NCBI GenBank assembly: GCA_964016885.1
Contig: CAXHJY010001665.1
Span: forward strand, 1 to 63,400
DNA: 63,400 bases
Reading direction: 5' to 3'
Source of the DNA: Eledone cirrhosa
Lineage: Eukaryota
Part shown: positions 19,433 through 50,818 of the stretch, one piece after another
How the letters are laid out: each line of letters starts with the position of its first letter
Position numbering within the stretch: position 1 is the first letter of the stretch
Position numbers and translations under genes: made by a program
The notes under the pieces: model-generated
The model's database searches: none
The model's input: the letters and a program-made list of their open reading frames with translations, nothing else
What the model was told of the DNA's origin: nothing

Positions 19433-19622
19433 TATGTAGATAAATCTACCAAGAGTTTACGGTAGTGTCCAATCCGTATGAAGAACTCAATGTATTCCGG
19501 ATATCATGGAAAGAAGAGATGCGATGAAAATCCACTTTCGGTGAAAGACAAACGGTATACAGAGTCAAGATAAAATATTAAACAAATAATGAATAAACAA
19601 TTCCTTATATTAAACAAAAAAA

Positions 19623-19777
19623 TTCATTATTTAACGATCGTTTCTAGGGTATATATGTGTTATAATTGGTATGCATATTCAACAGATCTATGTACAAAAT
19701 TATACAAAATTATACAAATTATCAAGATTAAATATACATACCTAACACATATATACGCCGTCTTCAGAAATAATGAA
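19623..19777 (-). ncRNA. Hammerhead ribozyme with extended stem II
   Basis: Reverse complement of 31610-31764. Confidence 0.75.
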
Positions 19778-20603
19778 GTATATTTATTGATAATAACAAC
19801 AATTCAAAATATCAGTTCAAAATTGACCAATGAAAACACAAAGGGTTAAAAGCAGTTCGGTGTGTGTATATACATGTAAAATCCTTACACATATTTTACA
19901 AAAATGTGTGTATAATTTGTATACGCATACTAAAAAGATGGATGCAAACACAAAATTTCAAGGTTAATATCTCTGTAAGCTTTATGCGCTGATAAGATGC
20001 ACATTGATACTTATGGAGTCAAGCATATAAATATATTTTTTCATACTCACACATATCAGTATAATCACACATACATGCGCGTATATGCATAAATATACAC
20101 ATAACCACGAACATACAAACACACACACTCCCCCACTCACATTTATATATGTGGATATAAAATCATAAGCACATAGAAATTAAATCACTCACATAAAACA
20201 CTGGCACACACATTTCAAGATCAAGATACAGAAATTAGGTGGGAGGGGGGGGAGGGGTCAGTATTCAATTGTCTGAGCAGACTGCCTAATATAAATGTAT
20301 CTATAAATTAAGAAAAATAAAAAAATAAAACAATAAAATATAATAACTATAATATAATATATATACACACATACAGATATATAAACACACATACATACAT
20401 GTACGCACACATAGAGATATTTACGCATACACACATACACACATACATATACAGTCATACACACACATACACTTACACGAACATACACATACACATATAA
20501 AAAGATATATATATACACACACACACACGCGCAACACATACACACATACACATATATATAAAAAAAATAGATAATAAAGATATATATCCACATATATATA
20601 CAT

Positions 20604-20648
<45 letters not shown>

Positions 20649-20747
20649 TATACATACATATACATATACATACACATACATCTAAATATACATACACATA
20701 CATACACACATACATGTACATACATGTACATACATATACGCACATCG

Positions 20748-20789
<42 letters not shown>

Positions 20790-21125
20790 TCACATAGACA
20801 TATAGATACATACACACACAACTTACATACACACGTATATATATATATATATATAGATGTACCTTCATACACAGAATTAGATATATAATCATACATACAT
20901 ATGCACCTACTTATACTCATATATATAAATACATACGCTTCCATAAATGTGTATATACATAAAAAACAATACAACCTCACCAAACTCAGACATACAAATA
21001 AAGATAATAATAAAAAATAATAAAAAAGCATATGTATATACATACACACACGCATTAATAGAGATATATATATATATATATATACACATACACACACACA
21101 TATATATACATACACACACATATAT

Positions 21126-21180
<55 letters not shown>

Positions 21181-21186
21181 TAGACT

Positions 21187-21223
<37 letters not shown>

Positions 21224-22562
21224 ATATATATCCACACACACATACCACCATAAAAACACATACAAACACCCACATGTATATATATATATATATATATATA
21301 TCCATATACACACACGTACATATATATACACATATATACATACATACATATATATACACACACACATAAAAAACAGACATGCACATATATATATATATAT
21401 ATATATTTTATTACTCTTATATATACACATATTATATATACATACACAACCTCACTTATACACATATACACATAAGTTATATTATAATAATAAAGAATAA
21501 TATACATATATATATATACATATACACATATATATATATATATATATATACATACATACATACACATACATACATACACATAAATACATACATACATAAA
21601 TACACACATACTAATAAAGACATATATTCACACATAGACACCTATATATATATATATATATATATATCTATATATATATATACATATATATATATATACA
21701 TATATATATACACACATACACACACACACACACACACAGACACACATACACACTCACATATATATATATATATATATGTGCATGTGTGTGTGCGCACATA
21801 CACATATATACACACACACATACAAACACACACAAACACATACATATGCATACGTGCACACACACACACATATATCACATAGATACGAAGATAAACATAT
21901 AAATAGAGAGACATACATATATATTCATACATAGACGCTTACAAATACAGATGATAATAGTATGGGGGAAAGGGGGGGTTTGGAGAAGGGGATCAAAGTA
22001 AATATATGTTTCAAGAAACATATAATATTTTCCGTATCTTAATTCAATGTATGTTCTTACATATTTTCAGTGCTAGGAAATACGAAATCTATGCATCTCA
22101 AAATAAATAAGTATACCATTAATCATATGTTAACTAAACCAAAGATAGCCAACATATTGATTTCTAAGGTGTAAATTAGTTAGGTTTATAATATTTGAAG
22201 CAGAATTTTGAAGTCAAACAGTAGTAGATTATTAATTACAATATAACTAAATTAAAGTTAATAACGTTATGGTATCAATATTAGGAGATGAATTTAGTAA
22301 TAGGGAAAAGAAACCCAAATAAAAATAAAATAAAGTATTACATCGGTAGTAGCATATAAATTATATGTTAACTAAATTAAAAATTATATATTTATTTCAA
22401 TAGTATACGTTAATTAGTATATGTTAATTAGGTATACAATACATAAAGCAGATATTGTATTTCATCAATAGCATAATATAATTATATGCAAATAGAAATC
22501 AAAATTAATACGCATACATATACATATACATACACATACACATATACATACATATACACACG

Positions 22563-22596
<34 letters not shown>

Positions 22597-23131
22597 CACA
22601 TATACACATACATACATACATACAGATACACATACACAACACACACATATACATACACATATACATATACATATCTTTTTCAAAAAATTGCACAGAATAT
22701 ATTAACTAGGTATATATCCAAAACACATCCCATTCTATGATTACATGACATTCTGCAATTCGTCTGTATAAGGATACTAATTATAAGCAAATTAAAATTA
22801 AAATTTTTAGGTTGATTAAAACTAAAACCAAATAATAAATATATTTCCAAAATGTATATTAATTATGTCTATAATACTAAAAATTATTTCTCCGTCATTG
22901 GAAACATGATATTATTTTGCTATATTTTATCTGTAAAAGAATTATAATAAAAGGTTTAAATAAATTAAAATTAATCTATAAATTAAATTACTAAGTATAT
23001 ATTAGTAATATTTAAAGGTTTTTCACAATTTATGATTACATAATATTTTCTCATCTGTAATAAAATATTAATTAAATTAAATTTATAGGTTAACTAACAT
23101 TTAAATTAAATTAATTTCTAGAATAATGTTA

Positions 23132-25573
23132 TTAATTAGGTTTATAATATTTAAATGTTTTTTTTAGTTTATGATTACACGATATAATTAATTCCTGTCG
23201 TTTATTTAATAAGATATCCTTAGACTTCATTATTTCAAATAGTTCTTGGGAACATAATCTACATTCCTTTCTATTATTTTGATAAGGGGTGGCTCTTTTG
23301 AGCACACTCCAGGTCAAATCATATTTTATATTCTTATTTTTATAACTATTGATTTTTTCTGCTAGAGATGTTGTATTAGCCAGTGCGGCATTTTTAAAAC
23401 TATGCTTGTGGGTATTAAACCTTGTCTTAAAATTGTTAGAGGTAGCTCCTATATATGAGCAAATAGAATCTTTAGTTTTAACATTACATTTATAGACTAT
23501 GTTGTTAACAAGACAATTCCCTTTTAATGGGCAGTTTGTTTTGTTTCTACAGTTACATCCTTTCGTTAATTCTGTATTTGAGGAGATATTATTGTTAATT
23601 TGATGTACTGGTGGTATACTTATGGTTTTCTTACATTTATATGCATTATATGCACTTATATTTTGTTTTATGTTATTTGTTGTAGAGTATGAGAATTTAA
23701 CTGTAGACCTATTTAAGATTTGATGGTATTTGTGGTTTGGCGGGAAGTTTTTCTCAAGGATATAAAAAAATTTTTTAGCAATATTATCCTTAACTTGTAA
23801 ATTAAAAGGAGCATTATACCAAGTAACTCGTCTATTACGGTTTCTATGTTGTTTATTATTTTTATTATTTTTATAGGTTGTATCATGATTTTTACTAGGA
23901 GGATTAATGTTAATGATCTCACCACAACTATTTTTAGTTATATTTGTAGATTTAGGTGTTTTATCTTTTTTATTAGGAGTTTTATTATTAATATTTATTA
24001 TAGTTGTATGATGAGTAGTTTTTTGAGGGTTACTATACTTTATATTAGAAGATTTAGTATTTTGGGGTATATTGTGGGTGGCATTAAGGTGTGTACTTTT
24101 CATTTGGTGTTTGTTGGTAATATTATGCTGTATGCTTTCAGTATTTTTAGTAGAAGGTATATACTCTAATCTATTTTTGTGGCCACTTCTATCTAGAGCT
24201 TCATTATAAAAGGTCGCATTTTTATCAAATACATCTTGGTTAGAAGAAAGGTTAGAAATTCTAAGTGATATATTATATGCAAGGTTTTTAAGGATAGATT
24301 TAGGGTGATTAGATTGTGAGTGTATGTAATGTAAGTTTTGGTTAGGTTTATGGTAAGGTTGGTATATACCCGTAGCTAAATCTAAAGTTATATCTAGGAA
24401 ATTTACTACTTTACTTGTTTTTTCAAAAGTAATATTAAGATTATAATAGTCTTTAAGGAAAGTTCTAATATGTTTTTTGTTTTTTTCGATTTCTGAAAGG
24501 CTAAGGTTGTTAGAAAGAAGAAGACAGTCATCACGATATAAACCACCTTTGAGGTGGGGAAAAGAGGCATTTATGTTGAAAAGGAGAAAGAGGCCCACAA
24601 GATCAGTAATTTGGGCGGAATCGCTTGAACCCATAGTAATATCAAAAAGATTACTGTATGTGTTTCTGGTCCAGTATTCATTCTGAAATTCAATAAGTGT
24701 TAGTCTAGCATGTGTAATAATGTTAATGTCATCCGAAGTTAAATTAGATCTATTTTTAGCAAATATTAATGCTTTGTTCAGGAGTATAGGTGATATAGAA
24801 GAATAGTAATTATCTATATCAAATTGTAGGAAAGAAGCAGAAGATTTACACCTAATATTTTTAAACCAGTTAATTACCTGGGAGGTGTTTTCCCAGAGTG
24901 GTAAAATAACGTGTTTTCTTATTTGTGGGATGACTCTATCTAAAATTTTTTTGCTAATTATTCCAATATCTGATTTGGAGGGACATATAAGTCTAATAGA
25001 AGGATTAGAGTTAAAGTTAGATTTGTGATCTTTCAGGTTGAAGTGTGGTCTTTTCAATGCCAAAGGTTCAGTTCTATCTTCAATGTTTAGTTTTTTTACT
25101 ATGTTGTGTGTTTTGTTGTTGATGTTGGTGAGTGACACATTATTAGATTTTTTATAATTTTTTCTGAGTTCTTTATATATGAACTCATTATAATGTTCAA
25201 TATCCATATGATACAAGTTACCAGTTTTGTCCGAGTGGACATGGATTTTTTTAGACTTTTTTAGGTCCAATAGGGTAGAATCAAGGTCCTTTTGAAAGAC
25301 GGATTTATACTTTTTAAATTTGAGGTGTTTAATTAAATTAAAAAGGTCTTTCTCGAAGTCTTCAAGTAAAAAGTTGTGTGGTGGATTCTTGTAAGTATTG
25401 AAATCATACATATATTTCCGATCTGCTTTTTTAGATTTCCTATCGAAGTGGTAGGCTCTCCATCTAACCCTTCTGATAAAATTATTAGTTTTCTGAATCA
25501 TAAGGAGTAAGAAGTCGTCCTTAGAAGGTATTGGTATGTTTTTTAAGGAGGTTCCTAAATATTGTTTTTCCAT
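23132..25573 (-). CDS. Naiad-type PLE RT/GIY-YIG polyprotein, 813 aa from ATG (unit A)
   Basis: SLKNIP, SDKT, QFDID, GLYRDD, CNCRNKTNCPLKGNC, IVY-YIG and CRLC motifs; intact. Confidence 0.95.
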   Translation of the reverse strand: MEKQYLGTSLKNIPIPSKDDFLLLMIQKTNNFIRRVRWRAYHFDRKSKKADRKYMYDFNTYKNPPHNFLLEDFEKDLFNLIKHLKFKKYKSVFQKDLDSTLLDLKKSKKIHVHSDKTGNLYHMDIEHYNEFIYKELRKNYKKSNNVSLTNINNKTHNIVKKLNIEDRTEPLALKRPHFNLKDHKSNFNSNPSIRLICPSKSDIGIISKKILDRVIPQIRKHVILPLWENTSQVINWFKNIRCKSSASFLQFDIDNYYSSISPILLNKALIFAKNRSNLTSDDINIITHARLTLIEFQNEYWTRNTYSNLFDITMGSSDSAQITDLVGLFLLFNINASFPHLKGGLYRDDCLLLSNNLSLSEIEKNKKHIRTFLKDYYNLNITFEKTSKVVNFLDITLDLATGIYQPYHKPNQNLHYIHSQSNHPKSILKNLAYNISLRISNLSSNQDVFDKNATFYNEALDRSGHKNRLEYIPSTKNTESIQHNITNKHQMKSTHLNATHNIPQNTKSSNIKYSNPQKTTHHTTIININNKTPNKKDKTPKSTNITKNSCGEIININPPSKNHDTTYKNNKNNKQHRNRNRRVTWYNAPFNLQVKDNIAKKFFYILEKNFPPNHKYHQILNRSTVKFSYSTTNNIKQNISAYNAYKCKKTISIPPVHQINNNISSNTELTKGCNCRNKTNCPLKGNCLVNNIVYKCNVKTKDSICSYIGATSNNFKTRFNTHKHSFKNAALANTTSLAEKINSYKNKNIKYDLTWSVLKRATPYQNNRKECRLCSQELFEIMKSKDILLNKRQELIISCNHKLKKTFKYYKPN

Positions 25574-25915
25574 TGTGATATGGATGATGGACAATTGAAA
25601 GAGCTCAACTAAATGTATATGGGTTTACAAAATCATACATATATATATGTTTATACATAAATATAAAATTAATACACACATACAGTACAAAAATACGAAT
25701 ATTTCCGTGAAAATAGGAGCAAAATTATGTAGATAAATCTACCAAGAGTTTACGGTAGTGTCCAATCCGTATGAAGAACTCAATGTATTCCGGATATCAT
25801 GGAAAGAAGAGATGCGATGAAAATCCACTTTCGGTGAAAGACAAACGGTATACAGAGTCAAGATAAAATATTAAACAAATAATGAATAAACAATTCCTTA
25901 TATTAAACAAAAAAA

Positions 25916-26070
25916 TTCATTATTTAACGATCGTTTCTAGGGTATATATGTGTTATAATTGGTATGCATATTCAACAGATCTATGTACAAAATTATACAA
26001 AATTATACAAATTATCAAGATTAAATATACATACCTAACACATATATACGCCGTCTTCAGAAATAATGAA
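25916..26070 (-). ncRNA. Hammerhead ribozyme with extended stem II
   Basis: Reverse complement of 31610-31764. Confidence 0.75.
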
Positions 26071-26526
26071 GTATATTTATTGATAATAACAACAATTCAA
26101 AATATCAGTTCAAAATTGACCAATGAAAACACAAAGGGTTAAAAGCAGTTCGGTGTGTGTATATACATGTAAAATCCTTACACATATTTTACAAAAATGT
26201 GTGTATAATTTGTATACGCATACTAAAAAGATGGATGCAAACACAAAATTTCAAGGTTAATATCTCTGTAAGCTTTATGCGCTGATAAGATGCACATTGA
26301 TACTTATGGAGTCAAGCATATAAATATATTTTTTCATACTCACACATATCAGTATAATCACACATACATGCGCGTATATGCATAAATATACACATAACCA
26401 CGAACATACAAACACACACACTCCCCCACTCACATTTATATATGTGGATATAAAATCATAAGCACATAGAAATTAAATCACTCACATAAAACACTGGCAC
26501 ACACATTTCAAGATCAAGATACAGAA

Positions 26527-28251
26527 ATTAGGTGTAAATCTTCTGCTTCTTTCCTACAATTTGATATAGATAATTACTATTCTTCTATATCACCTATACT
26601 CCTGAACAAAGCATTAATATTTGCTAAAAATAGATCTAATTTAACTTCGGATGACATTAACATTATTACACATGCTAGACTAACACTTATTGAATTTCAG
26701 AATGAATACTGGACCAGAAACACATACAGTAATCTTTTTGATATTACTATGGGTTCAAGCGATTCCGCCCAAATTACTGATCTTGTGGGCCTCTTTCTCC
26801 TTTTCAACATAAATGCCTCTTTTCCCCACCTCAAAGGTGGTTTATATCGTGATGACTGTCTTCTTCTTTCTAACAACCTTAGCCTTTCAGAAATCGAAAA
26901 AAACAAAAAACATATTAGAACTTTCCTTAAAGACTATTATAATCTTAATATTACTTTTGAAAAAACAAGTAAAGTAGTAAATTTCCTAGATATAACTTTA
27001 GATTTAGCTACGGGTATATACCAACCTTACCATAAACCTAACCAAAACTTACATTACATACACTCACAATCTAATCACCCTAAATCTATCCTTAAAAACC
27101 TTGCATATAATATATCACTTAGAATTTCTAACCTTTCTTCTAACCAAGATGTATTTGATAAAAATGCGACCTTTTATAATGAAGCTCTAGATAGAAGTGG
27201 CCACAAAAATAGATTAGAGTATATACCTTCTACTAAAAATACTGAAAGCATACAGCATAATATTACCAACAAACACCAAATGAAAAGTACACACCTAAAT
27301 GCCACCCACAATATACCCCAAAATACTAAATCTTCTAATATAAAGTATAGTAACCCTCAAAAAACTACTCATCATACAACTATAATAAATATTAATAATA
27401 AAACTCCTAATAAAAAAGATAAAACACCTAAATCTACAAATATAACTAAAAATAGTTGTGGTGAGATCATTAACATTAATCCTCCTAGTAAAAATCATGA
27501 TACAACCTATAAAAATAATAAAAATAATAAACAACATAGAAACCGTAATAGACGAGTTACTTGGTATAATGCTCCTTTTAATTTAAAAGTTAAGGATAAT
27601 ATTGCTAAAAAATTTTTTTATATCCTTGAGAAAAACTTCCCGCCAAACCACAAATACCATCAAATCTTAAATAGGTCTACAGTTAAATTCTCATACTCTA
27701 CAACAAATAACATAAAACAAAATATAAGTGCATATAATGCATATAAATGTAAGAAAACCATAAGTATACCACCAGTACATCAAATTAACAATAATATCTC
27801 CTCAAATACAGAATTAACGAAAGGATGTAACTGTAGAAACAAAACAAACTGCCCATTAAAAGGGAATTGTCTTGTTAACAACATAGTCTATAAATGTAAT
27901 GTTAAAACTAAAGATTCTATTTGCTCATATATAGGAGCTACCTCTAACAATTTTAAGACAAGGTTTAATACCCACAAGCATAGTTTTAAAAATGCCGCAC
28001 TGGCTAATACAACATCTCTAGCAGAAAAAATCAATAGTTATAAAAATAAGAATATAAAATATGATTTGACCTGGAGTGTGCTCAAAAGAGCCACCCCTTA
28101 TCAAAATAATAGAAAGGAATGTAGATTATGTTCCCAAGAACTATTTGAAATAATGAAGTCTAAGGATATCTTATTAAATAAACGACAGGAATTAATTATA
28201 TCGTGTAATCATAAACTAAAAAAAACATTTAAATATTATAAACCTAATTAA
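26527..28251 (+). pseudogene. 5'-truncated copy of the same ORF (unit B), starting at the inversion junction
   Basis: Begins at IRCKSS; one Q>K change (FNLKVK). Confidence 0.92.
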
Positions 28252-28786
28252 TAACATTATTCTAGAAATTAATTTAATTTAAATGTTAGTTAACCTATAA
28301 ATTTAATTTAATTAATATTTTATTACAGATGAGAAAATATTATGTAATCATAAATTGTGAAAAACCTTTAAATATTACTAATATATACTTAGTAATTTAA
28401 TTTATAGATTAATTTTAATTTATTTAAACCTTTTATTATAATTCTTTTACAGATAAAATATAGCAAAATAATATCATGTTTCCAATGACGGAGAAATAAT
28501 TTTTAGTATTATAGACATAATTAATATACATTTTGGAAATATATTTATTATTTGGTTTTAGTTTTAATCAACCTAAAAATTTTAATTTTAATTTGCTTAT
28601 AATTAGTATCCTTATACAGACGAATTGCAGAATGTCATGTAATCATAGAATGGGATGTGTTTTGGATATATACCTAGTTAATATATTCTGTGCAATTTTT
28701 TGAAAAAGATATGTATATGTATATGTGTATGTATATGTGTGTGTTGTGTATGTGTATCTGTATGTATGTATGTATGTGTATATGTG

Positions 28787-28823
<37 letters not shown>

Positions 28824-29449
28824 GTGTGTATATGTATGTATATGTGTATGTGTATGTATATGTATATGTATGCGTATTAATTTTGATTTCTATTTGCATA
28901 TAATTATATTATGCTATTGATGAAATACAATATCTGCTTTATGTATTGTATACCTAATTAACATATACTAATTAACGTATACTATTGAAATAAATATATA
29001 ATTTTTAATTTAGTTAACATATAATTTATATGCTACTACCGATGTAATACTTTATTTTATTTTTATTTGGGTTTCTTTTCCCTATTACTAAATTCATCTC
29101 CTAATATTGATACCATAACGTTATTAACTTTAATTTAGTTATATTGTAATTAATAATCTACTACTGTTTGACTTCAAAATTCTGCTTCAAATATTATAAA
29201 CCTAACTAATTTACACCTTAGAAATCAATATGTTGGCTATCTTTGGTTTAGTTAACATATGATTAATGGTATACTTATTTATTTTGAGATGCATAGATTT
29301 CGTATTTCCTAGCACTGAAAACATGTAAGAACATACATTGAATTAAGATACGGAAAATATTATATGTTTCTTGAAACATATATTTACTTTGATCCCCTTC
29401 TCCAAACCCCCCCTTTCCCCCATACTATTATCATCTGTATTTGTAAGCG

Positions 29450-30161
29450 TCTATGTATGAATATATATGTATGTCTCTCTATTTATATGTTTATCTTCGT
29501 ATCTATGTGATATATGTGTGTGTGTGTGCACGTATGCATATGTATGTGTTTGTGTGTGTTTGTATGTGTGTGTGTATATATGTGTATGTGCGCACACACA
29601 CATGCACATATATATATATATATATATGTGAGTGTGTATGTGTGTCTGTGTGTGTGTGTGTGTGTGTATGTGTGTATATATATATGTATATATATATATA
29701 TGTATATATATATATAGATATATATATATATATATATATATAGGTGTCTATGTGTGAATATATGTCTTTATTAGTATGTGTGTATTTATGTATGTATGTA
29801 TTTATGTGTATGTATGTATGTGTATGTATGTATGTATATATATATATATATATATATGTGTATATGTATATATATATATGTATATTATTCTTTATTATTA
29901 TAATATAACTTATGTGTATATGTGTATAAGTGAGGTTGTGTATGTATATATAATATGTGTATATATAAGAGTAATAAAATATATATATATATATATATAT
30001 GTGCATGTCTGTTTTTTATGTGTGTGTGTATATATATGTATGTATGTATATATGTGTATATATATGTACGTGTGTGTATATGGATATATATATATATATA
30101 TATATATACATGTGGGTGTTTGTATGTGTTTTTATGGTGGTATGTGTGTGTGGATATATAT

Positions 30162-30202
<41 letters not shown>

Positions 30203-30208
30203 AGTCTA

Positions 30209-30259
<51 letters not shown>

Positions 30260-30599
30260 ATATATGTGTGTGTATGTATATATATGTGTGTGTGTATGTG
30301 TATATATATATATATATATATCTCTATTAATGCGTGTGTGTATGTATATACATATGCTTTTTTATTATTTTTTATTATTATCTTTATTTGTATGTCTGAG
30401 TTTGGTGAGGTTGTATTGTTTTTTATGTATATACACATTTATGGAAGCGTATGTATTTATATATATGAGTATAAGTAGGTGCATATGTATGTAGGATTAT
30501 ATATCTAATTCTGTGTATGAAGGTACATCTATATATATATATATATATATATACGTGTGTATGTAAGTTGTGTGTGTATGTATCTATATGTCTATGTGA

Positions 30600-30639
<40 letters not shown>

Positions 30640-30738
30640 CGATGTGCGTATATGTATGTACATGTATGTACATGTATGTGTGTATGTATGTGTATGTATA
30701 TTTAGATGTATGTGTATGTATATGTATATGTATGTATA

Positions 30739-30783
<45 letters not shown>

Positions 30784-37031: not shown

Positions 37032-37076
<45 letters not shown>

Positions 37077-38399: not shown

Positions 38400-40841
38400 A
38401 TGGAAAAACAATATTTAGGAACCTCCTTAAAAAACATACCAATACCTTCTAAGGACGACTTCTTACTCCTTATGATTCAGAAAACTAATAATTTTATCAG
38501 AAGGGTTAGATGGAGAGCCTACCACTTCGATAGGAAATCTAAAAAAGCAGATCGGAAATATATGTATGATTTCAATACTTACAAGAATCCACCACACAAC
38601 TTTTTACTTGAAGACTTCGAGAAAGACCTTTTTAATTTAATTAAACACCTCAAATTTAAAAAGTATAAATCCGTCTTTCAAAAGGACCTTGATTCTACCC
38701 TATTGGACCTAAAAAAGTCTAAAAAAATCCATGTCCACTCGGACAAAACTGGTAACTTGTATCATATGGATATTGAACATTATAATGAGTTCATATATAA
38801 AGAACTCAGAAAAAATTATAAAAAATCTAATAATGTGTCACTCACCAACATCAACAACAAAACACACAACATAGTAAAAAAACTAAACATTGAAGATAGA
38901 ACTGAACCTTTGGCATTGAAAAGACCACACTTCAACCTGAAAGATCACAAATCTAACTTTAACTCTAATCCTTCTATTAGACTTATATGTCCCTCCAAAT
39001 CAGATATTGGAATAATTAGCAAAAAAATTTTAGATAGAGTCATCCCACAAATAAGAAAACACGTTATTTTACCACTCTGGGAAAACACCTCCCAGGTAAT
39101 TAACTGGTTTAAAAATATTAGGTGTAAATCTTCTGCTTCTTTCCTACAATTTGATATAGATAATTACTATTCTTCTATATCACCTATACTCCTGAACAAA
39201 GCATTAATATTTGCTAAAAATAGATCTAATTTAACTTCGGATGACATTAACATTATTACACATGCTAGACTAACACTTATTGAATTTCAGAATGAATACT
39301 GGACCAGAAACACATACAGTAATCTTTTTGATATTACTATGGGTTCAAGCGATTCCGCCCAAATTACTGATCTTGTGGGCCTCTTTCTCCTTTTCAACAT
39401 AAATGCCTCTTTTCCCCACCTCAAAGGTGGTTTATATCGTGATGACTGTCTTCTTCTTTCTAACAACCTTAGCCTTTCAGAAATCGAAAAAAACAAAAAA
39501 CATATTAGAACTTTCCTTAAAGACTATTATAATCTTAATATTACTTTTGAAAAAACAAGTAAAGTAGTAAATTTCCTAGATATAACTTTAGATTTAGCTA
39601 CGGGTATATACCAACCTTACCATAAACCTAACCAAAACTTACATTACATACACTCACAATCTAATCACCCTAAATCTATCCTTAAAAACCTTGCATATAA
39701 TATATCACTTAGAATTTCTAACCTTTCTTCTAACCAAGATGTATTTGATAAAAATGCGACCTTTTATAATGAAGCTCTAGATAGAAGTGGCCACAAAAAT
39801 AGATTAGAGTATATACCTTCTACTAAAAATACTGAAAGCATACAGCATAATATTACCAACAAACACCAAATGAAAAGTACACACCTAAATGCCACCCACA
39901 ATATACCCCAAAATACTAAATCTTCTAATATAAAGTATAGTAACCCTCAAAAAACTACTCATCATACAACTATAATAAATATTAATAATAAAACTCCTAA
40001 TAAAAAAGATAAAACACCTAAATCTACAAATATAACTAAAAATAGTTGTGGTGAGATCATTAACATTAATCCTCCTAGTAAAAATCATGATACAACCTAT
40101 AAAAATAATAAAAATAATAAACAACATAGAAACCGTAATAGACGAGTTACTTGGTATAATGCTCCTTTTAATTTACAAGTTAAGGATAATATTGCTAAAA
40201 AATTTTTTTATATCCTTGAGAAAAACTTCCCGCCAAACCACAAATACCATCAAATCTTAAATAGGTCTACAGTTAAATTCTCATACTCTACAACAAATAA
40301 CATAAAACAAAATATAAGTGCATATAATGCATATAAATGTAAGAAAACCATAAGTATACCACCAGTACATCAAATTAACAATAATATCTCCTCAAATACA
40401 GAATTAACGAAAGGATGTAACTGTAGAAACAAAACAAACTGCCCATTAAAAGGGAATTGTCTTGTTAACAACATAGTCTATAAATGTAATGTTAAAACTA
40501 AAGATTCTATTTGCTCATATATAGGAGCTACCTCTAACAATTTTAAGACAAGGTTTAATACCCACAAGCATAGTTTTAAAAATGCCGCACTGGCTAATAC
40601 AACATCTCTAGCAGAAAAAATCAATAGTTATAAAAATAAGAATATAAAATATGATTTGACCTGGAGTGTGCTCAAAAGAGCCACCCCTTATCAAAATAAT
40701 AGAAAGGAATGTAGATTATGTTCCCAAGAACTATTTGAAATAATGAAGTCTAAGGATATCTTATTAAATAAACGACAGGAATTAATTATATCGTGTAATC
40801 ATAAACTAAAAAAAACATTTAAATATTATAAACCTAATTAA
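38400..40841 (+). CDS. Naiad-type PLE RT/GIY-YIG polyprotein (unit D)
   Basis: Intact; identical protein. Confidence 0.95.
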   Translation: MEKQYLGTSLKNIPIPSKDDFLLLMIQKTNNFIRRVRWRAYHFDRKSKKADRKYMYDFNTYKNPPHNFLLEDFEKDLFNLIKHLKFKKYKSVFQKDLDSTLLDLKKSKKIHVHSDKTGNLYHMDIEHYNEFIYKELRKNYKKSNNVSLTNINNKTHNIVKKLNIEDRTEPLALKRPHFNLKDHKSNFNSNPSIRLICPSKSDIGIISKKILDRVIPQIRKHVILPLWENTSQVINWFKNIRCKSSASFLQFDIDNYYSSISPILLNKALIFAKNRSNLTSDDINIITHARLTLIEFQNEYWTRNTYSNLFDITMGSSDSAQITDLVGLFLLFNINASFPHLKGGLYRDDCLLLSNNLSLSEIEKNKKHIRTFLKDYYNLNITFEKTSKVVNFLDITLDLATGIYQPYHKPNQNLHYIHSQSNHPKSILKNLAYNISLRISNLSSNQDVFDKNATFYNEALDRSGHKNRLEYIPSTKNTESIQHNITNKHQMKSTHLNATHNIPQNTKSSNIKYSNPQKTTHHTTIININNKTPNKKDKTPKSTNITKNSCGEIININPPSKNHDTTYKNNKNNKQHRNRNRRVTWYNAPFNLQVKDNIAKKFFYILEKNFPPNHKYHQILNRSTVKFSYSTTNNIKQNISAYNAYKCKKTISIPPVHQINNNISSNTELTKGCNCRNKTNCPLKGNCLVNNIVYKCNVKTKDSICSYIGATSNNFKTRFNTHKHSFKNAALANTTSLAEKINSYKNKNIKYDLTWSVLKRATPYQNNRKECRLCSQELFEIMKSKDILLNKRQELIISCNHKLKKTFKYYKPN

Positions 40842-41376
40842 TAACATTATTCTAGAAATTAATTTAATTTAAATGTTAGTTAACCTATAAATTTAATTTA
40901 ATTAATATTTTATTACAGATGAGAAAATATTATGTAATCATAAATTGTGAAAAACCTTTAAATATTACTAATATATACTTAGTAATTTAATTTATAGATT
41001 AATTTTAATTTATTTAAACCTTTTATTATAATTCTTTTACAGATAAAATATAGCAAAATAATATCATGTTTCCAATGACGGAGAAATAATTTTTAGTATT
41101 ATAGACATAATTAATATACATTTTGGAAATATATTTATTATTTGGTTTTAGTTTTAATCAACCTAAAAATTTTAATTTTAATTTGCTTATAATTAGTATC
41201 CTTATACAGACGAATTGCAGAATGTCATGTAATCATAGAATGGGATGTGTTTTGGATATATACCTAGTTAATATATTCTGTGCAATTTTTTGAAAAAGAT
41301 ATGTATATGTATATGTGTATGTATATGTGTGTGTTGTGTATGTGTATCTGTATGTATGTATGTATGTGTATATGTG

Positions 41377-41415
<39 letters not shown>

Positions 41416-42278
41416 GTGTGTATATGTATGTATATGTGTATGTGTATGTATATGTATATGTATGCGTATTAATTTTGATTTCTATTTGCATATAATTATA
41501 TTATGCTATTGATGAAATACAATATCTGCTTTATGTATTGTATACCTAATTAACATATACTAATTAACGTATACTATTGAAATAAATATATAATTTTTAA
41601 TTTAGTTAACATATAATTTATATGCTACTACCGATGTAATACTTTATTTTATTTTTATTTGGGTTTCTTTTCCCTATTACTAAATTCATCTCCTAATATT
41701 GATACCATAACGTTATTAACTTTAATTTAGTTATATTGTAATTAATAATCTACTACTGTTTGACTTCAAAATTCTGCTTCAAATATTATAAACCTAACTA
41801 ATTTACACCTTAGAAATCAATATGTTGGCTATCTTTGGTTTAGTTAACATATGATTAATGGTATACTTATTTATTTTGAGATGCATAGATTTCGTATTTC
41901 CTAGCACTGAAAATATGTAAGAACATACATTGAATTAAGATACGGAAAATATTATATGTTTCTTGAAACATATATTTACTTTGATCCCCTTCTCCAAACC
42001 CCCCCTTTCCCCCATACTATTATCATCTGTATTTGTAAGCGTCTATGTATGAATATATATGTATGTCTCTCTATTTATATGTTTATCTTCGTATATATGT
42101 GATATATGTGTGTGTGTGTGCACGTATGCATATGTATGTGTTTGTGTGTGTTTGTATGTGTGTGTGTATATATGTGTATGTGCGCACACACACATGCACA
42201 TATATATATATATATATATGTGAGTGTGTATGTGTGTCTGTGTGTGTGTGTGTGTGTGTATGTGTGTATATATATATG

Positions 42279-42336
<58 letters not shown>

Positions 42337-42673
42337 TGTCTATGTGTGAATATATGTCTTTATTAGTATGTGTGTATTTATGTATGTATGTATTTATGTG
42401 TATGTATGTATGTGTATGTATGTATGTATATATATATATATATATATATGTGTATATGTATATATATATATGTATATTATTCTTTATTATTATAATATAA
42501 CTTATGTGTATATGTGTATAAGTGAGGTTGTGTATGTATATATAATATGTGTATATATAAGAGTAATAAAATATATATATATATATATATATGTGCATGT
42601 CTGTTTTTTATGTGTGTGTGTATATATATGTATGTATGTATATATGTGTATATATATGTACGTGTGTGTATAT

Positions 42674-42707
<34 letters not shown>

Positions 42708-42760
42708 GTGGGTGTTTGTATGTGTTTTTATGGTGGTATGTGTGTGTGGATATATATGTT

Positions 42761-42792
<32 letters not shown>

Positions 42793-42798
42793 AGTCTA

Positions 42799-42855
<57 letters not shown>

Positions 42856-43191
42856 ATATATGTGTGTGTATGTATATATATGTGTGTGTGTATGTGTATA
42901 TATATATATATATATATCTCTATTAATGCGTGTGTGTATGTATATACATATGCTTTTTTATTATTTTTTATTATTATCTTTATTTGTATGTCTGAGTTTG
43001 GTGAGGTTGTATTGTTTTTTATGTATATACACATTTATGGAAGCGTATGTATTTATATATATGAGTATAAGTAGGTGCATATGTATGTATGATTATATAT
43101 CTAATTCTGTGTATGAAGGTACATCTATATATATATATATATATACGTGTGTATGTAAGTTGTGTGTGTATGTATCTATATGTCTATGTGA

Positions 43192-43233
<42 letters not shown>

Positions 43234-43332
43234 CGATGTGCGTATATGTATGTACATGTATGTACATGTATGTGTGTATGTATGTGTATGTATATTTAGA
43301 TGTATGTGTATGTATATGTATATGTATGTATA

Positions 43333-43377
<45 letters not shown>

Positions 43378-44203
43378 ATGTATATATATGTGGATATATA
43401 TCTTTATTATCTATTTTTTTTATATATATGTGTATGTGTGTATGTGTTGCGCGTGTGTGTGTGTGTATATATATATCTTTTTATATGTGTATGTGTATGT
43501 TCGTGTAAGTGTATGTGTGTGTATGACTGTATATGTATGTGTGTATGTGTGTATGCGTAAATATCTCTATGTGTGCGTACATGTATGTATGTGTGTTTAT
43601 ATATCTGTATGTGTGTATATATATTATATTATAGTTATTATATTTTATTGTTTTATTTTTTTATTTTTCTTAATTTATAGATACATTTATATTAGGCAGT
43701 CTGCTCAGACAATTGAATACTGACCCCTCCCCCCCCTCCCACCTAATTTCTGTATCTTGATCTTGAAATGTGTGTGCCAGTGTTTTATGTGAGTGATTTA
43801 ATTTCTATGTGCTTATGATTTTATATCCACATATATAAATGTGAGTGGGGGAGTGTGTGTGTTTGTATGTTCGTGGTTATGTGTATATTTATGCATATAC
43901 GCGCATGTATGTGTGATTATACTGATATGTGTGAGTATGAAAAAATATATTTATATGCTTGACTCCATAAGTATCAATGTGCATCTTATCAGCGCATAAA
44001 GCTTACAGAGATATTAACCTTGAAATTTTGTGTTTGCATCCATCTTTTTAGTATGCGTATACAAATTATACACACATTTTTGTAAAATATGTGTAAGGAT
44101 TTTACATGTATATACACACACCGAACTGCTTTTAACCCTTTGTGTTTTCATTGGTCAATTTTGAACTGATATTTTGAATTGTTGTTATTATCAATAAATA
44201 TAC

Positions 44204-44358
44204 TTCATTATTTCTGAAGACGGCGTATATATGTGTTAGGTATGTATATTTAATCTTGATAATTTGTATAATTTTGTATAATTTTGTACATAGATCTGTT
44301 GAATATGCATACCAATTATAACACATATATACCCTAGAAACGATCGTTAAATAATGAA
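44204..44358 (+). ncRNA. Hammerhead ribozyme with extended stem II
   Basis: Identical to 31610-31764. Confidence 0.75.
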
Positions 44359-44700
44359 TTTTTTTGTTTAATATAAGGAATTGTTTATTCATTATTTGTT
44401 TAATATTTTATCTTGACTCTGTATACCGTTTGTCTTTCACCGAAAGTGGATTTTCATCGCATCTCTTCTTTCCATGATATCCGGAATACATTGAGTTCTT
44501 CATACGGATTGGACACTACCGTAAACTCTTGGTAGATTTATCTACATAATTTAGCTCCTATTTTCACGGAAATATTCGTATTTTTGTACTGTATGTGTGT
44601 ATTAATTTTATATTTATGTATAAACATATATATATGTATGATTTTGTAAACCCATATACATTTAGTTGAGCTCTTTCAATTGTCCATCATCCATATCACA

Positions 44701-47142
44701 ATGGAAAAACAATATTTAGGAACCTCCTTAAAAAACATACCAATACCTTCTAAGGACGACTTCTTACTCCTTATGATTCAGAAAACTAATAATTTTATCA
44801 GAAGGGTTAGATGGAGAGCCTACCACTTCGATAGGAAATCTAAAAAAGCAGATCGGAAATATATGTATGATTTCAATACTTACAAGAATCCACCACACAA
44901 CTTTTTACTTGAAGACTTCGAGAAAGACCTTTTTAATTTAATTAAACACCTCAAATTTAAAAAGTATAAATCCGTCTTTCAAAAGGACCTTGATTCTACC
45001 CTATTGGACCTAAAAAAGTCTAAAAAAATCCATGTCCACTCGGACAAAACTGGTAACTTGTATCATATGGATATTGAACATTATAATGAGTTCATATATA
45101 AAGAACTCAGAAAAAATTATAAAAAATCTAATAATGTGTCACTCACCAACATCAACAACAAAACACACAACATAGTAAAAAAACTAAACATTGAAGATAG
45201 AACTGAACCTTTGGCATTGAAAAGACCACACTTCAACCTGAAAGATCACAAATCTAACTTTAACTCTAATCCTTCTATTAGACTTATATGTCCCTCCAAA
45301 TCAGATATTGGAATAATTAGCAAAAAAATTTTAGATAGAGTCATCCCACAAATAAGAAAACACGTTATTTTACCACTCTGGGAAAACACCTCCCAGGTAA
45401 TTAACTGGTTTAAAAATATTAGGTGTAAATCTTCTGCTTCTTTCCTACAATTTGATATAGATAATTACTATTCTTCTATATCACCTATACTCCTGAACAA
45501 AGCATTAATATTTGCTAAAAATAGATCTAATTTAACTTCGGATGACATTAACATTATTACACATGCTAGACTAACACTTATTGAATTTCAGAATGAATAC
45601 TGGACCAGAAACACATACAGTAATCTTTTTGATATTACTATGGGTTCAAGCGATTCCGCCCAAATTACTGATCTTGTGGGCCTCTTTCTCCTTTTCAACA
45701 TAAATGCCTCTTTTCCCCACCTCAAAGGTGGTTTATATCGTGATGACTGTCTTCTTCTTTCTAACAACCTTAGCCTTTCAGAAATCGAAAAAAACAAAAA
45801 ACATATTAGAACTTTCCTTAAAGACTATTATAATCTTAATATTACTTTTGAAAAAACAAGTAAAGTAGTAAATTTCCTAGATATAACTTTAGATTTAGCT
45901 ACGGGTATATACCAACCTTACCATAAACCTAACCAAAACTTACATTACATACACTCACAATCTAATCACCCTAAATCTATCCTTAAAAACCTTGCATATA
46001 ATATATCACTTAGAATTTCTAACCTTTCTTCTAACCAAGATGTATTTGATAAAAATGCGACCTTTTATAATGAAGCTCTAGATAGAAGTGGCCACAAAAA
46101 TAGATTAGAGTATATACCTTCTACTAAAAATACTGAAAGCATACAGCATAATATTACCAACAAACACCAAATGAAAAGTACACACCTAAATGCCACCCAC
46201 AATATACCCCAAAATACTAAATCTTCTAATATAAAGTATAGTAACCCTCAAAAAACTACTCATCATACAACTATAATAAATATTAATAATAAAACTCCTA
46301 ATAAAAAAGATAAAACACCTAAATCTACAAATATAACTAAAAATAGTTGTGGTGAGATCATTAACATTAATCCTCCTAGTAAAAATCATGATACAACCTA
46401 TAAAAATAATAAAAATAATAAACAACATAGAAACCGTAATAGACGAGTTACTTGGTATAATGCTCCTTTTAATTTACAAGTTAAGGATAATATTGCTAAA
46501 AAATTTTTTTATATCCTTGAGAAAAACTTCCCGCCAAACCACAAATACCATCAAATCTTAAATAGGTCTACAGTTAAATTCTCATACTCTACAACAAATA
46601 ACATAAAACAAAATATAAGTGCATATAATGCATATAAATGTAAGAAAACCATAAGTATACCACCAGTACATCAAATTAACAATAATATCTCCTCAAATAC
46701 AGAATTAACGAAAGGATGTAACTGTAGAAACAAAACAAACTGCCCATTAAAAGGGAATTGTCTTGTTAACAACATAGTCTATAAATGTAATGTTAAAACT
46801 AAAGATTCTATTTGCTCATATATAGGAGCTACCTCTAACAATTTTAAGACAAGGTTTAATACCCACAAGCATAGTTTTAAAAATGCCGCACTGGCTAATA
46901 CAACATCTCTAGCAGAAAAAATCAATAGTTATAAAAATAAGAATATAAAATATGATTTGACCTGGAGTGTGCTCAAAAGAGCCACCCCTTATCAAAATAA
47001 TAGAAAGGAATGTAGATTATGTTCCCAAGAACTATTTGAAATAATGAAGTCTAAGGATATCTTATTAAATAAACGACAGGAATTAATTATATCGTGTAAT
47101 CATAAACTAAAAAAAACATTTAAATATTATAAACCTAATTAA
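44701..47142 (+). CDS. Naiad-type PLE RT/GIY-YIG polyprotein (unit E)
   Basis: Intact; identical protein. Confidence 0.95.
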   Translation: MEKQYLGTSLKNIPIPSKDDFLLLMIQKTNNFIRRVRWRAYHFDRKSKKADRKYMYDFNTYKNPPHNFLLEDFEKDLFNLIKHLKFKKYKSVFQKDLDSTLLDLKKSKKIHVHSDKTGNLYHMDIEHYNEFIYKELRKNYKKSNNVSLTNINNKTHNIVKKLNIEDRTEPLALKRPHFNLKDHKSNFNSNPSIRLICPSKSDIGIISKKILDRVIPQIRKHVILPLWENTSQVINWFKNIRCKSSASFLQFDIDNYYSSISPILLNKALIFAKNRSNLTSDDINIITHARLTLIEFQNEYWTRNTYSNLFDITMGSSDSAQITDLVGLFLLFNINASFPHLKGGLYRDDCLLLSNNLSLSEIEKNKKHIRTFLKDYYNLNITFEKTSKVVNFLDITLDLATGIYQPYHKPNQNLHYIHSQSNHPKSILKNLAYNISLRISNLSSNQDVFDKNATFYNEALDRSGHKNRLEYIPSTKNTESIQHNITNKHQMKSTHLNATHNIPQNTKSSNIKYSNPQKTTHHTTIININNKTPNKKDKTPKSTNITKNSCGEIININPPSKNHDTTYKNNKNNKQHRNRNRRVTWYNAPFNLQVKDNIAKKFFYILEKNFPPNHKYHQILNRSTVKFSYSTTNNIKQNISAYNAYKCKKTISIPPVHQINNNISSNTELTKGCNCRNKTNCPLKGNCLVNNIVYKCNVKTKDSICSYIGATSNNFKTRFNTHKHSFKNAALANTTSLAEKINSYKNKNIKYDLTWSVLKRATPYQNNRKECRLCSQELFEIMKSKDILLNKRQELIISCNHKLKKTFKYYKPN

Positions 47143-47677
47143 TAACATTATTCTAGAAATTAATTTAATTTAAATGTTAGTTAACCTATAAATTTAATTT
47201 AATTAATATTTTATTACAGATGAGAAAATATTATGTAATCATAAATTGTGAAAAACCTTTAAATATTACTAATATATACTTAGTAATTTAATTTATAGAT
47301 TAATTTTAATTTATTTAAACCTTTTATTATAATTCTTTTACAGATAAAATATAGCAAAATAATATCATGTTTCCAATGACGGAGAAATAATTTTTAGTAT
47401 TATAGACATAATTAATATACATTTTGGAAATATATTTATTATTTGGTTTTAGTTTTAATCAACCTAAAAATTTTAATTTTAATTTGCTTATAATTAGTAT
47501 CCTTATACAGACGAATTGCAGAATGTCATGTAATCATAGAATGGGATGTGTTTTGGATATATACCTAGTTAATATATTCTGTGCAATTTTTTGAAAAAGA
47601 TATGTATATGTATATGTGTATGTATATGTGTGTGTTGTGTATGTGTATCTGTATGTATGTATGTATGTGTATATGTG

Positions 47678-47714
<37 letters not shown>

Positions 47715-49052
47715 GTGTGTATATGTATGTATATGTGTATGTGTATGTATATGTATATGTATGCGTATTAATTTTGATTTCTATTTGCATATAATTATAT
47801 TATGCTATTGATGAAATACAATATCTGCTTTATGTATTGTATACCTAATTAACATATACTAATTAACGTATACTATTGAAATAAATATATAATTTTTAAT
47901 TTAGTTAACATATAATTTATATGCTACTACCGATGTAATACTTTATTTTATTTTTATTTGGGTTTCTTTTCCCTGTTACTAAATTCATCTCCTAATATTG
48001 ATACCATAACGTTATTAACTTTAATTTAGTTATATTGTAATTAATAATCTACTACTGTTTGACTTCAAAATTCTGCTTCAAATATTATAAACCTAACTAA
48101 TTTACACCTTAGAAATCAATATGTTGGCTATCTTTGGTTTAGTTAACATATGATTAATGGTATACTTATTTATTTTGAGATGCATAGATTTCGTATTTCC
48201 TAGCACTGAAAATATGTAAGAACATACATTGAATTAAGATACGGAAAATATTATATGTTTCTTGAAACATATATTTACTTTGATCCCCTTCTCCAAACCC
48301 CCCCTTTCCCCCATACTATTATCATCTGTATTTGTAAGCGTCTATGTATGAATATATATGTATGTCTCTCTATTTATATGTTTATCTTCGTATCTATGTG
48401 ATATATGTGTGTGTGTGTGCACGTATGCATATGTATGTGTTTGTGTGTGTTTGTATGTGTGTGTGTATATATGTGTATGTGCGCACACACACATGCACAT
48501 ATATATATATATATATATGTGAGTGTGTATGTGTGTCTGTGTGTGTGTGTGTGTGTGTATGTGTGTATATATATATGTATATATATATATATGTATATAT
48601 ATATATAGATATATATATATATATATATATATAGGTGTCTATGTGTGAATATATGTCTTTATTAGTATGTGTGTATTTATGTATGTATGTATTTATGTGT
48701 ATGTATGTATGTGTATGTATGTATGTATATATATATATATATATATATGTGTATATGTATATATATATATGTATATTATTCTTTATTATTATAATATAAC
48801 TTATGTGTATATGTGTATAAGTGAGGTTGTGTATGTATATATAATATGTGTATATATAAGAGTAATAAAATATATATATATATATATATATGTGCATGTC
48901 TGTTTTTTATGTGTGTGTGTATATATATGTATGTATGTATATATGTGTATATATATGTACGTGTGTGTATATGGATATATATATATATATATATATATAC
49001 ATGTGGGTGTTTGTATGTGTTTTTATGGTGGTATGTGTGTGTGGATATATAT

Positions 49053-49089
<37 letters not shown>

Positions 49090-49095
49090 AGTCTA

Positions 49096-49152
<57 letters not shown>

Positions 49153-49488
49153 ATATATGTGTGTGTATGTATATATATGTGTGTGTGTATGTGTATATAT
49201 ATATATATATATATCTCTATTAATGCGTGTGTGTATGTATATACATATGCTTTTTTATTATTTTTTATTATTATCTTTATTTGTATGTCTGAGTTTGGTG
49301 AGGTTGTATTGTTTTTTATGTATATACACATTTATGGAAGCGTATGTATTTATATATATGAGTATAAGTAGGTGCATATGTATGTATGATTATATATCTA
49401 ATTCTGTGTATGAAGGTACATCTATATATATATATATATATACGTGTGTATGTAAGTTGTGTGTGTATGTATCTATATGTCTATGTGA

Positions 49489-49528
<40 letters not shown>

Positions 49529-49627
49529 CGATGTGCGTATATGTATGTACATGTATGTACATGTATGTGTGTATGTATGTGTATGTATATTTAGATGTAT
49601 GTGTATGTATATGTATATGTATGTATA

Positions 49628-49670
<43 letters not shown>

Positions 49671-50496
49671 ATGTATATATATGTGGATATATATCTTTAT
49701 TATCTATTTTTTTTATATATATGTGTATGTGTGTATGTGTTGCGCGTGTGTGTGTGTGTATATATATATCTTTTTATATGTGTATGTGTATGTTCGTGTA
49801 AGTGTATGTGTGTGTATGACTGTATATGTATGTGTGTATGTGTGTATGCGTAAATATCTCTATGTGTGCGTACATGTATGTATGTGTGTTTATATATCTG
49901 TATGTGTGTATATATATTATATTATAGTTATTATATTTTATTGTTTTATTTTTTTATTTTTCTTAATTTATAGATACATTTATATTAGGCAGTCTGCTCA
50001 GACAATTGAATACTGACCCCTCCCCCCCCTCCCACCTAATTTCTGTATCTTGATCTTGAAATGTGTGTGCCAGTGTTTTATGTGAGTGATTTAATTTCTA
50101 TGTGCTTATGATTTTATATCCACATATATAAATGTGAGTGGGGGAGTGTGTGTGTTTGTATGTTCGTGGTTATGTGTATATTTATGCATATACGCGCATG
50201 TATGTGTGATTATACTGATATGTGTGAGTATGAAAAAATATATTTATATGCTTGACTCCATAAGTATCAATGTGCATCTTATCAGCGCATAAAGCTTACA
50301 GAGATATTAACCTTGAAATTTTGTGTTTGCATCCATCTTTTTAGTATGCGTATACAAATTATACACACATTTTTGTAAAATATGTGTAAGGATTTTACAT
50401 GTATATACACACACCGAACTGCTTTTAACCCTTTGTGTTTTCATTGGTCAATTTTGAACTGATATTTTGAATTGTTGTTATTATCAATAAATATAC

Positions 50497-50651
50497 TTCA
50501 TTATTTCTGAAGACGGCGTATATATGTGTTAGGTATGTATATTTAATCTTGATAATTTGTATAATTTTGTATAATTTTGTACATAGATCTGTTGAATATG
50601 CATACCAATTATAACACATATATACCCTAGAAACGATCGTTAAATAATGAA
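50497..50651 (+). ncRNA. Hammerhead ribozyme with extended stem II (array ends ~50 nt downstream)
   Basis: Identical to 31610-31764. Confidence 0.75.
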
Positions 50652-50818
50652 TTTTTTTGTTTAATATAAGGAATTGTTTATTCATTATTTGTTTAATATT
50701 TTATATAAATATATATATATATAAATATATATATAAATATATATATATATAAATATATATATATAAATATATATATATATAAATATATAAATATATATAT
50801 AAATATATATATATATAA

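Follow-up and report, generated by a model that had tools for sequence, protein, structure and literature searches.

How do Penelope-like elements (PLEs) come to stand in tandem? Circular RNA, multimeric read-through RNA and template jumps have all been considered, and the choice among them is a stated open question in the literature. We approached it at a locus of Eledone cirrhosa (assembly GCA_964016885.1, contig CAXHJY010001665.1, positions 1 to 63,400), where about five PLE units form a head-to-head array of 31,272 bp (19433-50704) that is flanked on both sides by (TA)n. The whole 63,400-nt stretch is called the window here. As assembled the array is real, and the single-nucleotide polymorphisms (SNPs) shared by its units indicate that its likely source was two or more RNA templates and not one RNA circle. 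Ordered shared SNPs in units that are 99.9% identical provide a natural tracer for tandem formation, and they argue against one circle alone.

Structure of the array

Positions within a unit are counted from the A of the ATG at 32107. The anatomy was determined from k-mer diagonals and from global alignment of every segment to the unit designated R2 (32107-38399, plus strand). By this alignment the units are 6293-6301 bp long. The left arm lies on the minus strand, running from 26534 to 19433, and contains unit positions 5333-6293 followed by 1-6141, in total 7102 bp or 1.13 units. Its upstream partial unit, L0 (25574-26534, minus strand, unit 5333-6293), contains a predicted hammerhead at 25916-26070 and serves as the pseudo-long terminal repeat (pLTR) of L1 (19433-25573, minus strand, unit 1-6141). 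The right arm lies on the plus strand at 26527-50704. It begins at position 718 of R1, inside the open reading frame (ORF), takes in R2 and R3 and stops at position 6004 of R4, in total 24,178 bp or 3.84 units. R1 (26527-32106, unit 718-6293) is truncated at its 5′ end, R2 and R3 (38400-44700) are full units, and R4 (44701-50704, unit 1-6004) ends at a short boundary, unit 6004. A first-pass annotation made from the sequence had estimated about 1.1 minus-strand and 3.85 plus-strand units, in agreement with these values. It had also described the units as free of (TA)n spacers and target-site duplications (TSDs) between them, and the alignment bears this out: not a single base is gained or lost at any joint.

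The two outer ends of the array differ. A tail of 137 nt (19433-19569, minus strand, unit 6005-6141), estimated earlier at about 140 nt, is present at the left end only and brings it to a long boundary, unit 6141, while the right end stops at the short boundary, as had been noted. The left flank is an interrupted (TA)n block, the target (17417-19432), and the right flank (50705-50995) is interrupted (TA)n, after which comes a short fold-back element.

Four ORFs are full length (23132-25573 on the minus strand; 32107-34548, 38400-40841 and 44701-47142 on the plus strand) and encode identical proteins of 813 aa with a reverse transcriptase (RT) and, at the C terminus, a GIY-YIG endonuclease. They had been called identical, which is correct for the proteins but not for the DNA, where one silent site, unit 1488, varies. 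A fifth ORF (26527-28251, in R1) is truncated at its 5′ end at aa 240, so that aa 240-813 remain, and carries one amino-acid change. Each intact ORF is preceded by a pLTR with a hammerhead motif. In R2 a microsatellite-rich 3′ region of 3.4 kb separates the ORF from the hammerhead. Every unit leader also contains a candidate 75-nt intron (GTATGT...TTTAG; 31997-32071 in the leader of R2) between the tail and the ATG, which resembles the retained leader intron of Penelope.

Shared SNPs among the units

The units vary at nine substitution sites, four shared and five private, and in the length of seven (TA)n tracts. The private substitutions (R1 has three, R4 and L1 one apiece) amount to about 1 per 6 kb, a rate that would be compatible with the copying errors of one event. 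The shared sites are given here as sense-strand letters. At unit 1488, a silent site, L1 and R2 have T (24086 and 33594), and R1, R3 and R4 have A (27297, 39887 and 46188). The linked sites 3696 and 3910 (spanning 21668-48608) read C and G in L1, R1 and R4, and A and T in R2 and R3. At unit 6146, T is found in L0 (25721) and at the end of R1 (31959), and A at 38252 and 44553; T precedes L1 and R2, and A precedes R3 and R4.

An exhaustive search found no solution with one template for the four shared sites. Copying from a single template should leave private errors only, which is not what the units show. Two templates suffice, H1 (6146T, 1488T, 3696C, 3910G) and H2 (A, A, A, T in the same order), with three switches; the next-best two-template model needs five. 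The left arm is then pure H1, and the right arm reads, from left to right, H2, H1, H2, H2, H1. The three switches so placed are all confined to unit 1488-3696, and the hammerhead is the site of none of them. When the units are cut at the hammerhead or at the tail, four distinct templates are needed, compared with two for a cut in 1488-3696. The first-pass annotation had suggested either rolling-circle copying of one hammerhead-joined RNA or repeated template jumping. The former is not supported by these results, since no single template fits, while the latter agrees with the shared-SNP mosaic.

Of the seven (TA)n tracts that vary, three differ between R2 and R3, and two to six in each of the remaining nine pairs of units. 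With three tracts still differing, R2 and R3 do not look like a fresh duplicate. Fold-back copying was also considered and rejected: a left arm copied from the right arm would have 3-5 mismatches in all three registers, and R1 copied from L1 would have five.

It had been suggested that the array could be a master locus. The part of this claim that holds is structural, in that each intact ORF has its own upstream pLTR with a hammerhead, so a master locus is structurally possible. The public sequencing runs described below contain many other copies, and the SNP mosaic suggests that the array was a recipient from donors.

Ends, inversion joint and target site

The arms stand head-to-head, with the 3′ ends of both facing the flanks, and they overlap by 8 nt, ATTAGGTG, at the inversion joint (26527-26534). 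In 200,000 random-join trials for each estimate, the chance that a reversed and a forward unit share at least eight letters where they meet was 4e-4 for the non-repeat parts and 4e-3 for the whole unit. The 3′ ends of cDNAs growing inward from both flanks would be complementary over exactly these 8 nt. Both the orientation of the arms and this internal microhomology fit the earlier proposal of priming from both target strands. The proposed start sites lie 289 nt (unit 6004) and 152 nt (unit 6141) before the ATG.

A possible TSD had been noted between 19387-19435 and 50700-50745. Anchored at the ends of the element, the best exact match between the flanks is 15 nt, and a 36-nt match is obtained only if the right start is shifted 5 nt into the flank. 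Random pairs of cuts in the same TA blocks (n = 5000) gave at least 15 nt in 38% of cases and 36 nt in 7%, so the proposed duplication is at chance level. The right flank matches the distal arm of a TA block elsewhere in the window (token score 20, compared with shuffle maxima of 10-14). Since the left flank does not have this pattern, a single target site is plausible but not proven.

The family in public sequencing runs

Thirteen public runs contain part of the element, none of them recorded as RNA. Four runs from three studies were aligned to 24857-28700, which holds most non-repetitive unit positions once together with the inversion joint. The long boundary, at 25726, passes into (TA)n in 585 reads of run X15 and three contigs of X5, that is, in two of the four runs, and one X4 contig starts at this position. 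The short boundary, at 25863, passes into (TA)n in one X5 contig among the loose ends listed (573 further ones exist). Because both recur beside (TA)n, unit 6141 and unit 6004 appear to be boundaries of the family, the former firmly so. The inversion joint was bridged by none of the 24 pieces listed, with 3918 further pieces.

Copies of the family in the four runs are 90-100% alike, compared with 1-6 substitutions per pair of array units, which makes the array a very narrow and young lineage. One X1 contig (25664-25753) has no differences from the window and carries the H1 letter at unit 6146. Depth in X1 was 298,000-404,000 at the 3′ end and 4,000-5,000 at ORF 5′ ends; such depths are not copy numbers, and they show that short 3′-end copies far outnumber ORF 5′ ends. 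In the same run the hammerhead and tail region (25760-26146) was some tens of times as deep as the 5′ part of the ORF, and some reads skip 84-86 nt within stem II of the hammerhead. Short derivatives that carry a hammerhead with a reduced stem II are thus very numerous in this family. Other copies also contain tandem joints that are not seamless (25787 to 25557 in three X15 reads; 25891 to 25560 in one X1 contig). In these joints the copy lying upstream stops at unit 14-17, a short way into the ORF, possibly a third start or jump site.

Identity of the element

The locus had been identified as a PLE, and the motifs of its protein and its layout agree. A search found 116 homologs, none of which bears a PLE name, and the protein was aligned with 11 of them. 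YRDD at 346 and VY..YIG at 693-709 are conserved across all 12 aligned proteins. Pfam found neither an RT nor a GIY-YIG domain in the ORF, and only a sub-threshold GIY-YIG match in its paralog at 7225; the assignment of both domains consequently rests on motifs and alignment. On this basis the array has the single ORF with RT and C-terminal GIY-YIG of endonuclease-bearing (EN+) PLEs, as well as their tandem and inverted layout that forms pLTRs and their one-sided tail, here of 137 nt and not 30-40 nt.

Within the EN+ PLEs, the element resembles the Hydra clade (Craig et al. 2021, PMC8557442; this and the other papers are cited for the parts of their text available to us). The clade shares with it the order of RT and GIY-YIG in one ORF, RW[K/R] and DKT, a CxCx5C linker, CxxC and CxH around a catalytic E and N, the absence of CCHH, a 3′ hammerhead whose core has 8 nt and whose GAA is preceded by an additional base, and insertion into (TA)n. 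In the array protein RWR is found at 37 and DKT at 115, in place of GxKF/Y and DKG. RWK is present in 9 of the 11 aligned relatives (RWK or RWR was counted as aligned), and R37 and W38 are nearly invariant. The linker is CNCRNKTNC at 673-681, followed by CRLC at 771, E777, N790 and CNH at 799. No CCHH motif was found in the protein, nor any cysteine pair between the YIG motif and 771. The (TA)n target is seen at both array flanks and at other insertion ends.

A type I hammerhead motif of Hydra-clade layout is predicted near the 3′ end of the unit, at 31610-31764 on the plus strand, with a predicted cut after 31754. Further copies are found at 37903-38057, 44204-44358 and 50497-50651 on the plus strand and at 19623-19777 and, in L0, 25916-26070 on the minus strand. 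Each unit has one CUGANGA core, with the predicted cut after unit 5941. The predicted fold has a helix I of 10 bp, the core CUGAAGAC...AGAA, a stem II region of 116 nt and a minimal palindromic stem III, AC-GAUC-GU. Its 8-nt core and the extra base before GAA agree with the published table for the Hydra clade (PMC8557442). The folding z-score of -6.3 is carried by stem II, which is enlarged and has one mismatch near its base. An Rfam scan of the array returned no hammerhead, and its miRNA matches are microsatellite noise. No special RNA structure is evident in the tail (z -1.05, not significant).

The length of the unit is unusual. Hydra-clade elements tend to be shorter than 3 kb, which PMC8557442 gives as a tendency and not as a diagnostic feature; its 27 listed families measure 1.1-3.0 kb, compared with 6.3 kb here. 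The excess is non-coding 3′ sequence that is rich in microsatellites and contains degenerate repeats of the ORF 3′ end, one at unit 2528-2811 and another at about 3330-3480 (compared with shuffles, z 5.4-7.9). These degenerate copies make misregistered copying in this zone likely at an earlier time. Distances from the ORF match were measured in those 30 of 77 related metagenome loci that have a downstream hammerhead motif. The hammerhead lies 72-424 nt from the ORF in these loci, compared with 3.4 kb in the array, and the stem II region is 10-25 nt, compared with 116 nt. Judged by motifs and layout, the element belongs to the Hydra clade of EN+ PLEs, of which it is a new, unusually long family.

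Formation of the array

The explanation that we favor, with a probability of about 0.45, is a single insertion, primed from both target strands, during which RT moved by homology from one sibling RNA to another. The GIY-YIG nuclease of the element would cut both strands of the TA target. RT would start at the long site, unit 6141, on the top strand and make the 7.1-kb left arm from H1. A second RT would start at the short site, unit 6004, on the bottom strand and make the 24.2-kb right arm, copying H1, H2, H2, H1 and H2 in order of synthesis, with three homology-guided switches in unit 1488-3696. The templates would be at least two near-identical sibling RNAs, linear or circular. Finally, the two cDNA 3′ ends would anneal over their complementary 8 nt and prime each other's second strand.

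Several of these steps have precedents. A purified PLE, the Poseidon element PAc of Anolis (PMC11167929), makes cuts in both strands of AT-rich DNA and extends them, begins RT at a pair of internal sites that delimit the tail, and inserts in vitro without a need for hammerhead cleavage. Inverted arms of L1 are attributed to two priming events on one RNA (twin priming) or on two RNAs (dual priming) (PMC2837659). Seamless pLTR-ORF-pLTR repeats in relatives are also supportive. Of eight metagenome loci chosen from the 77 because their ORF has a hammerhead on either side, seven have a direct repeat of at least 112 nt with a period of about 2.4 kb, and four of those seven end in (TA)n.

A number of observations weigh against the favored explanation. 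The mosaic is carried by only four shared sites, which form two linked pairs, and it could come from a donor array, from later gene conversion or from the assembler. The donors H1 and H2 are known only by inference from the array itself. When the labels were permuted, 28 of 100 trials also gave a two-template fit in the 1488-3696 register, which makes the switch zone no more than a hint. At the target, no TSD was shown, and the left flank does not match the TA block (token score 6-7). The public runs differ from the window at sites such as 27790 and 25842, where nearly all of their sequence has another letter; with differences so near fixation, these runs may come from other individuals or species. 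Finally, the short-read units of the related metagenome contig L011 differ at one site in the order C/T/C, as would be expected of an assembler walking a loop.

A more specific proposal is doubtful: that the array records a single PLE reaction in which RT starts internally, transfers between RNAs near the ORF 3′ end and not at the hammerhead, and makes 24 kb of seamless cDNA. If it were true, PLE tandems would be built by intermolecular strand transfer and not from a circle that a ribozyme has closed, and this two-ended reaction would be responsible as well for the spread of the short fold-backs and TA-only palindromic blocks of this genome.

Alternatively, a read-through RNA of more than 31 kb, transcribed from an already mosaic donor array, could have been twin-primed as in L1, with the right arm copied from its 3′ part and the left arm from its 5′ part and 869 nt lost between unit 6141 and unit 718 of the following copy. 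We regard this as unlikely. Seamless joints follow from it directly, the truncation of the right arm and the priming site of the left arm, upstream of it, are separated by just 869 nt, or 14% of a unit, and multi-copy mRNA has been proposed as a PLE template (PMC11167929). The length is within the reach of PLE-type RTs, which make elements of up to 40 kb in Terminons (PMC6431247). However, a gap so small would arise by chance in about 1 of 7 cases, six hammerhead copies would have to stay uncut, and a donor of at least five units is required, which merely moves the origin of the mosaic back one step.

Later recombination is rather unlikely. A smaller insertion, consisting of the left arm and about 1.8 right-arm units, would have been lengthened when unequal exchange with a sibling array, or conversion by it, brought in two units of H2 as a block. 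When this pure H2 block, which extends from the 3′ part of R2 into the 5′ part of R4, is removed, the remaining unit does have the left-arm alleles T, T, C, G, and R2 and R3 are the closest pair, with one substitution. Against this, R1 keeps the allele of H2 at unit 1488, three (TA)n tracts distinguish R2 from R3, and an extra event must be placed in a very young array.

It is also improbable, by our estimate, that the copy number or the mosaic was stitched by the assembler from near-identical arrays or alleles across identical stretches. Typical accurate long reads are 15-20 kb, and the array exceeds them. Exactly two haplotypes suffice, as would be expected from two alleles or loci, and no piece listed in the runs bridges the inversion joint. 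The pattern in L011 shows that a two-variant loop can be walked twice, and PLE structures are known to trouble assemblies (PMC8557442). Stitching does not readily explain why every unit has its own combination of (TA)n lengths, why three units have private substitutions, why the outer ends fall exactly on the family boundaries or why the microhomology at the center is non-random. From the boundary ends and the joint microhomology we conclude that the architecture as a whole is biological, even should the number of units be wrong.

Very improbable is a single 6.3-kb RNA circle, closed at the hammerhead and copied by rolling-circle RT, with the shared variants arising later through mutation and conversion: this model (proposed in PMC4209133) accounts for seamless joints and for one hammerhead motif per unit in Hydra-clade layout, but it predicts private errors only, whereas four sites are shared across non-adjacent units and both arms, neither an end nor an inferred switch is found at the predicted cut (unit 5941), and hammerhead cleavage was dispensable for insertion of the related PLE in vitro (PMC11167929).

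Comparison with known systems

Published descriptions of a typical PLE insertion comprise a partial tandem, an inverted 5′-truncated copy and a one-sided tail (PMC8557442, legend of Fig. 2; PMC3846280). The array likewise has at least two tandem ORFs, an inverted copy at the 5′ end and a tail at a single end. It differs in having about five units over 31 kb, an inverted arm that holds a whole intact ORF, a tail of 137 nt instead of 30-40 nt, and no provable TSD. Because the layout is the published typical arrangement, the novelty lies in size and not in kind. This is a textbook PLE structure that should surprise specialists moderately, and its value is in the order of the SNPs. A literature search, mostly excluding subscription papers, turned up no description of an EN+ PLE array this large or of units with a SNP mosaic, and the available parts of PMC12910113 and PMC9977147 contain nothing on multi-unit PLE arrays. 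The search also found no paper on Hydra-clade biochemistry.

PAc (PMC11167929) shares with the array two RT start sites that bound the tail, an AT-rich target, cutting and extension of both strands, and tandem loci. It belongs to another clade, and its start sites are inside the ORF, whereas those of the array are before the ATG. Twin or dual priming of L1 (PMC2837659) likewise yields inverted arms from both nicks and is expected to leave microhomology at the joint. Unlike L1, the array has no poly(A), its arms exceed one unit, and each of them starts at a fixed internal site. Non-LTR retrozymes (bioRxiv 10.64898/2026.07.22.740005) and Terminons (PMC6431247) also form hammerhead-bearing head-to-tail multimers tied to PLEs. 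The former are short and non-coding, and the latter are without a fused endonuclease and are located at telomeres.

Tandem organization is normal for the Hydra clade, and 9 of the 77 related contigs close on themselves. Contig L011 (1-5083) contains just over two seamless units of 2427 bp with the one-site C/T/C difference, and is either a real multimer or an assembler loop. A survey of similar arrays in one long-read genome could map switch positions. The four intact ORFs of a young family with defined starts (unit 6004 and 6141) also offer a usable in vitro substrate.

Other elements in the window

Short fold-back elements in the window had been compared with the array, and the arrangement of arm, arm and tail is indeed common to both. 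Five short fold-backs with a one-sided tail, from three families, lie at about 1865-2030, 50994-51186, 52093-52459, 57155-57351 and 61768-62134. A larger inverted pair at 15071-17416 has a tail of about 160 nt. Hammerhead cores are found in the arm of one fold-back family (CUGAUGA) and in the tail of another (CUGAGGA).

The long (TA)n blocks of the window are non-random in pattern. The region 13533-14969 is an inverted repeat of TA only (token score 60.5, compared with a shuffle maximum of 14). Its TA pattern recurs in 17696-18843, 57987-58357 and 60293-60657, with scores of 54, 28 and 25.5, respectively, compared with 10-12.5 in shuffles. These blocks look like dispersed head-to-head TA-only elements, which PLE enzymes may have spread.

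A second Hydra-type PLE family occupies 3217-11137. Its part at 5649-11137 is a pLTR-ORF-pLTR structure in which the pLTRs are 99% alike, the ORF is frameshifted and Rfam Hammerhead_1 matches fall below the gathering score. A copy that is about 80% alike (3217-5646) ends at its own hammerhead and directly precedes this structure, with no TA spacer between them. The region 3217-11137 is a head-to-tail join of two different templates.

Two remnants of long interspersed nuclear elements (LINEs) are also present. One, at 130-1485, retains an RT fragment (Pfam RVT_1). The other, at 53887-57209, which we take to be RTE-like, has an AP endonuclease (Pfam Exo_endo_phos) and ends in (ATG)n.

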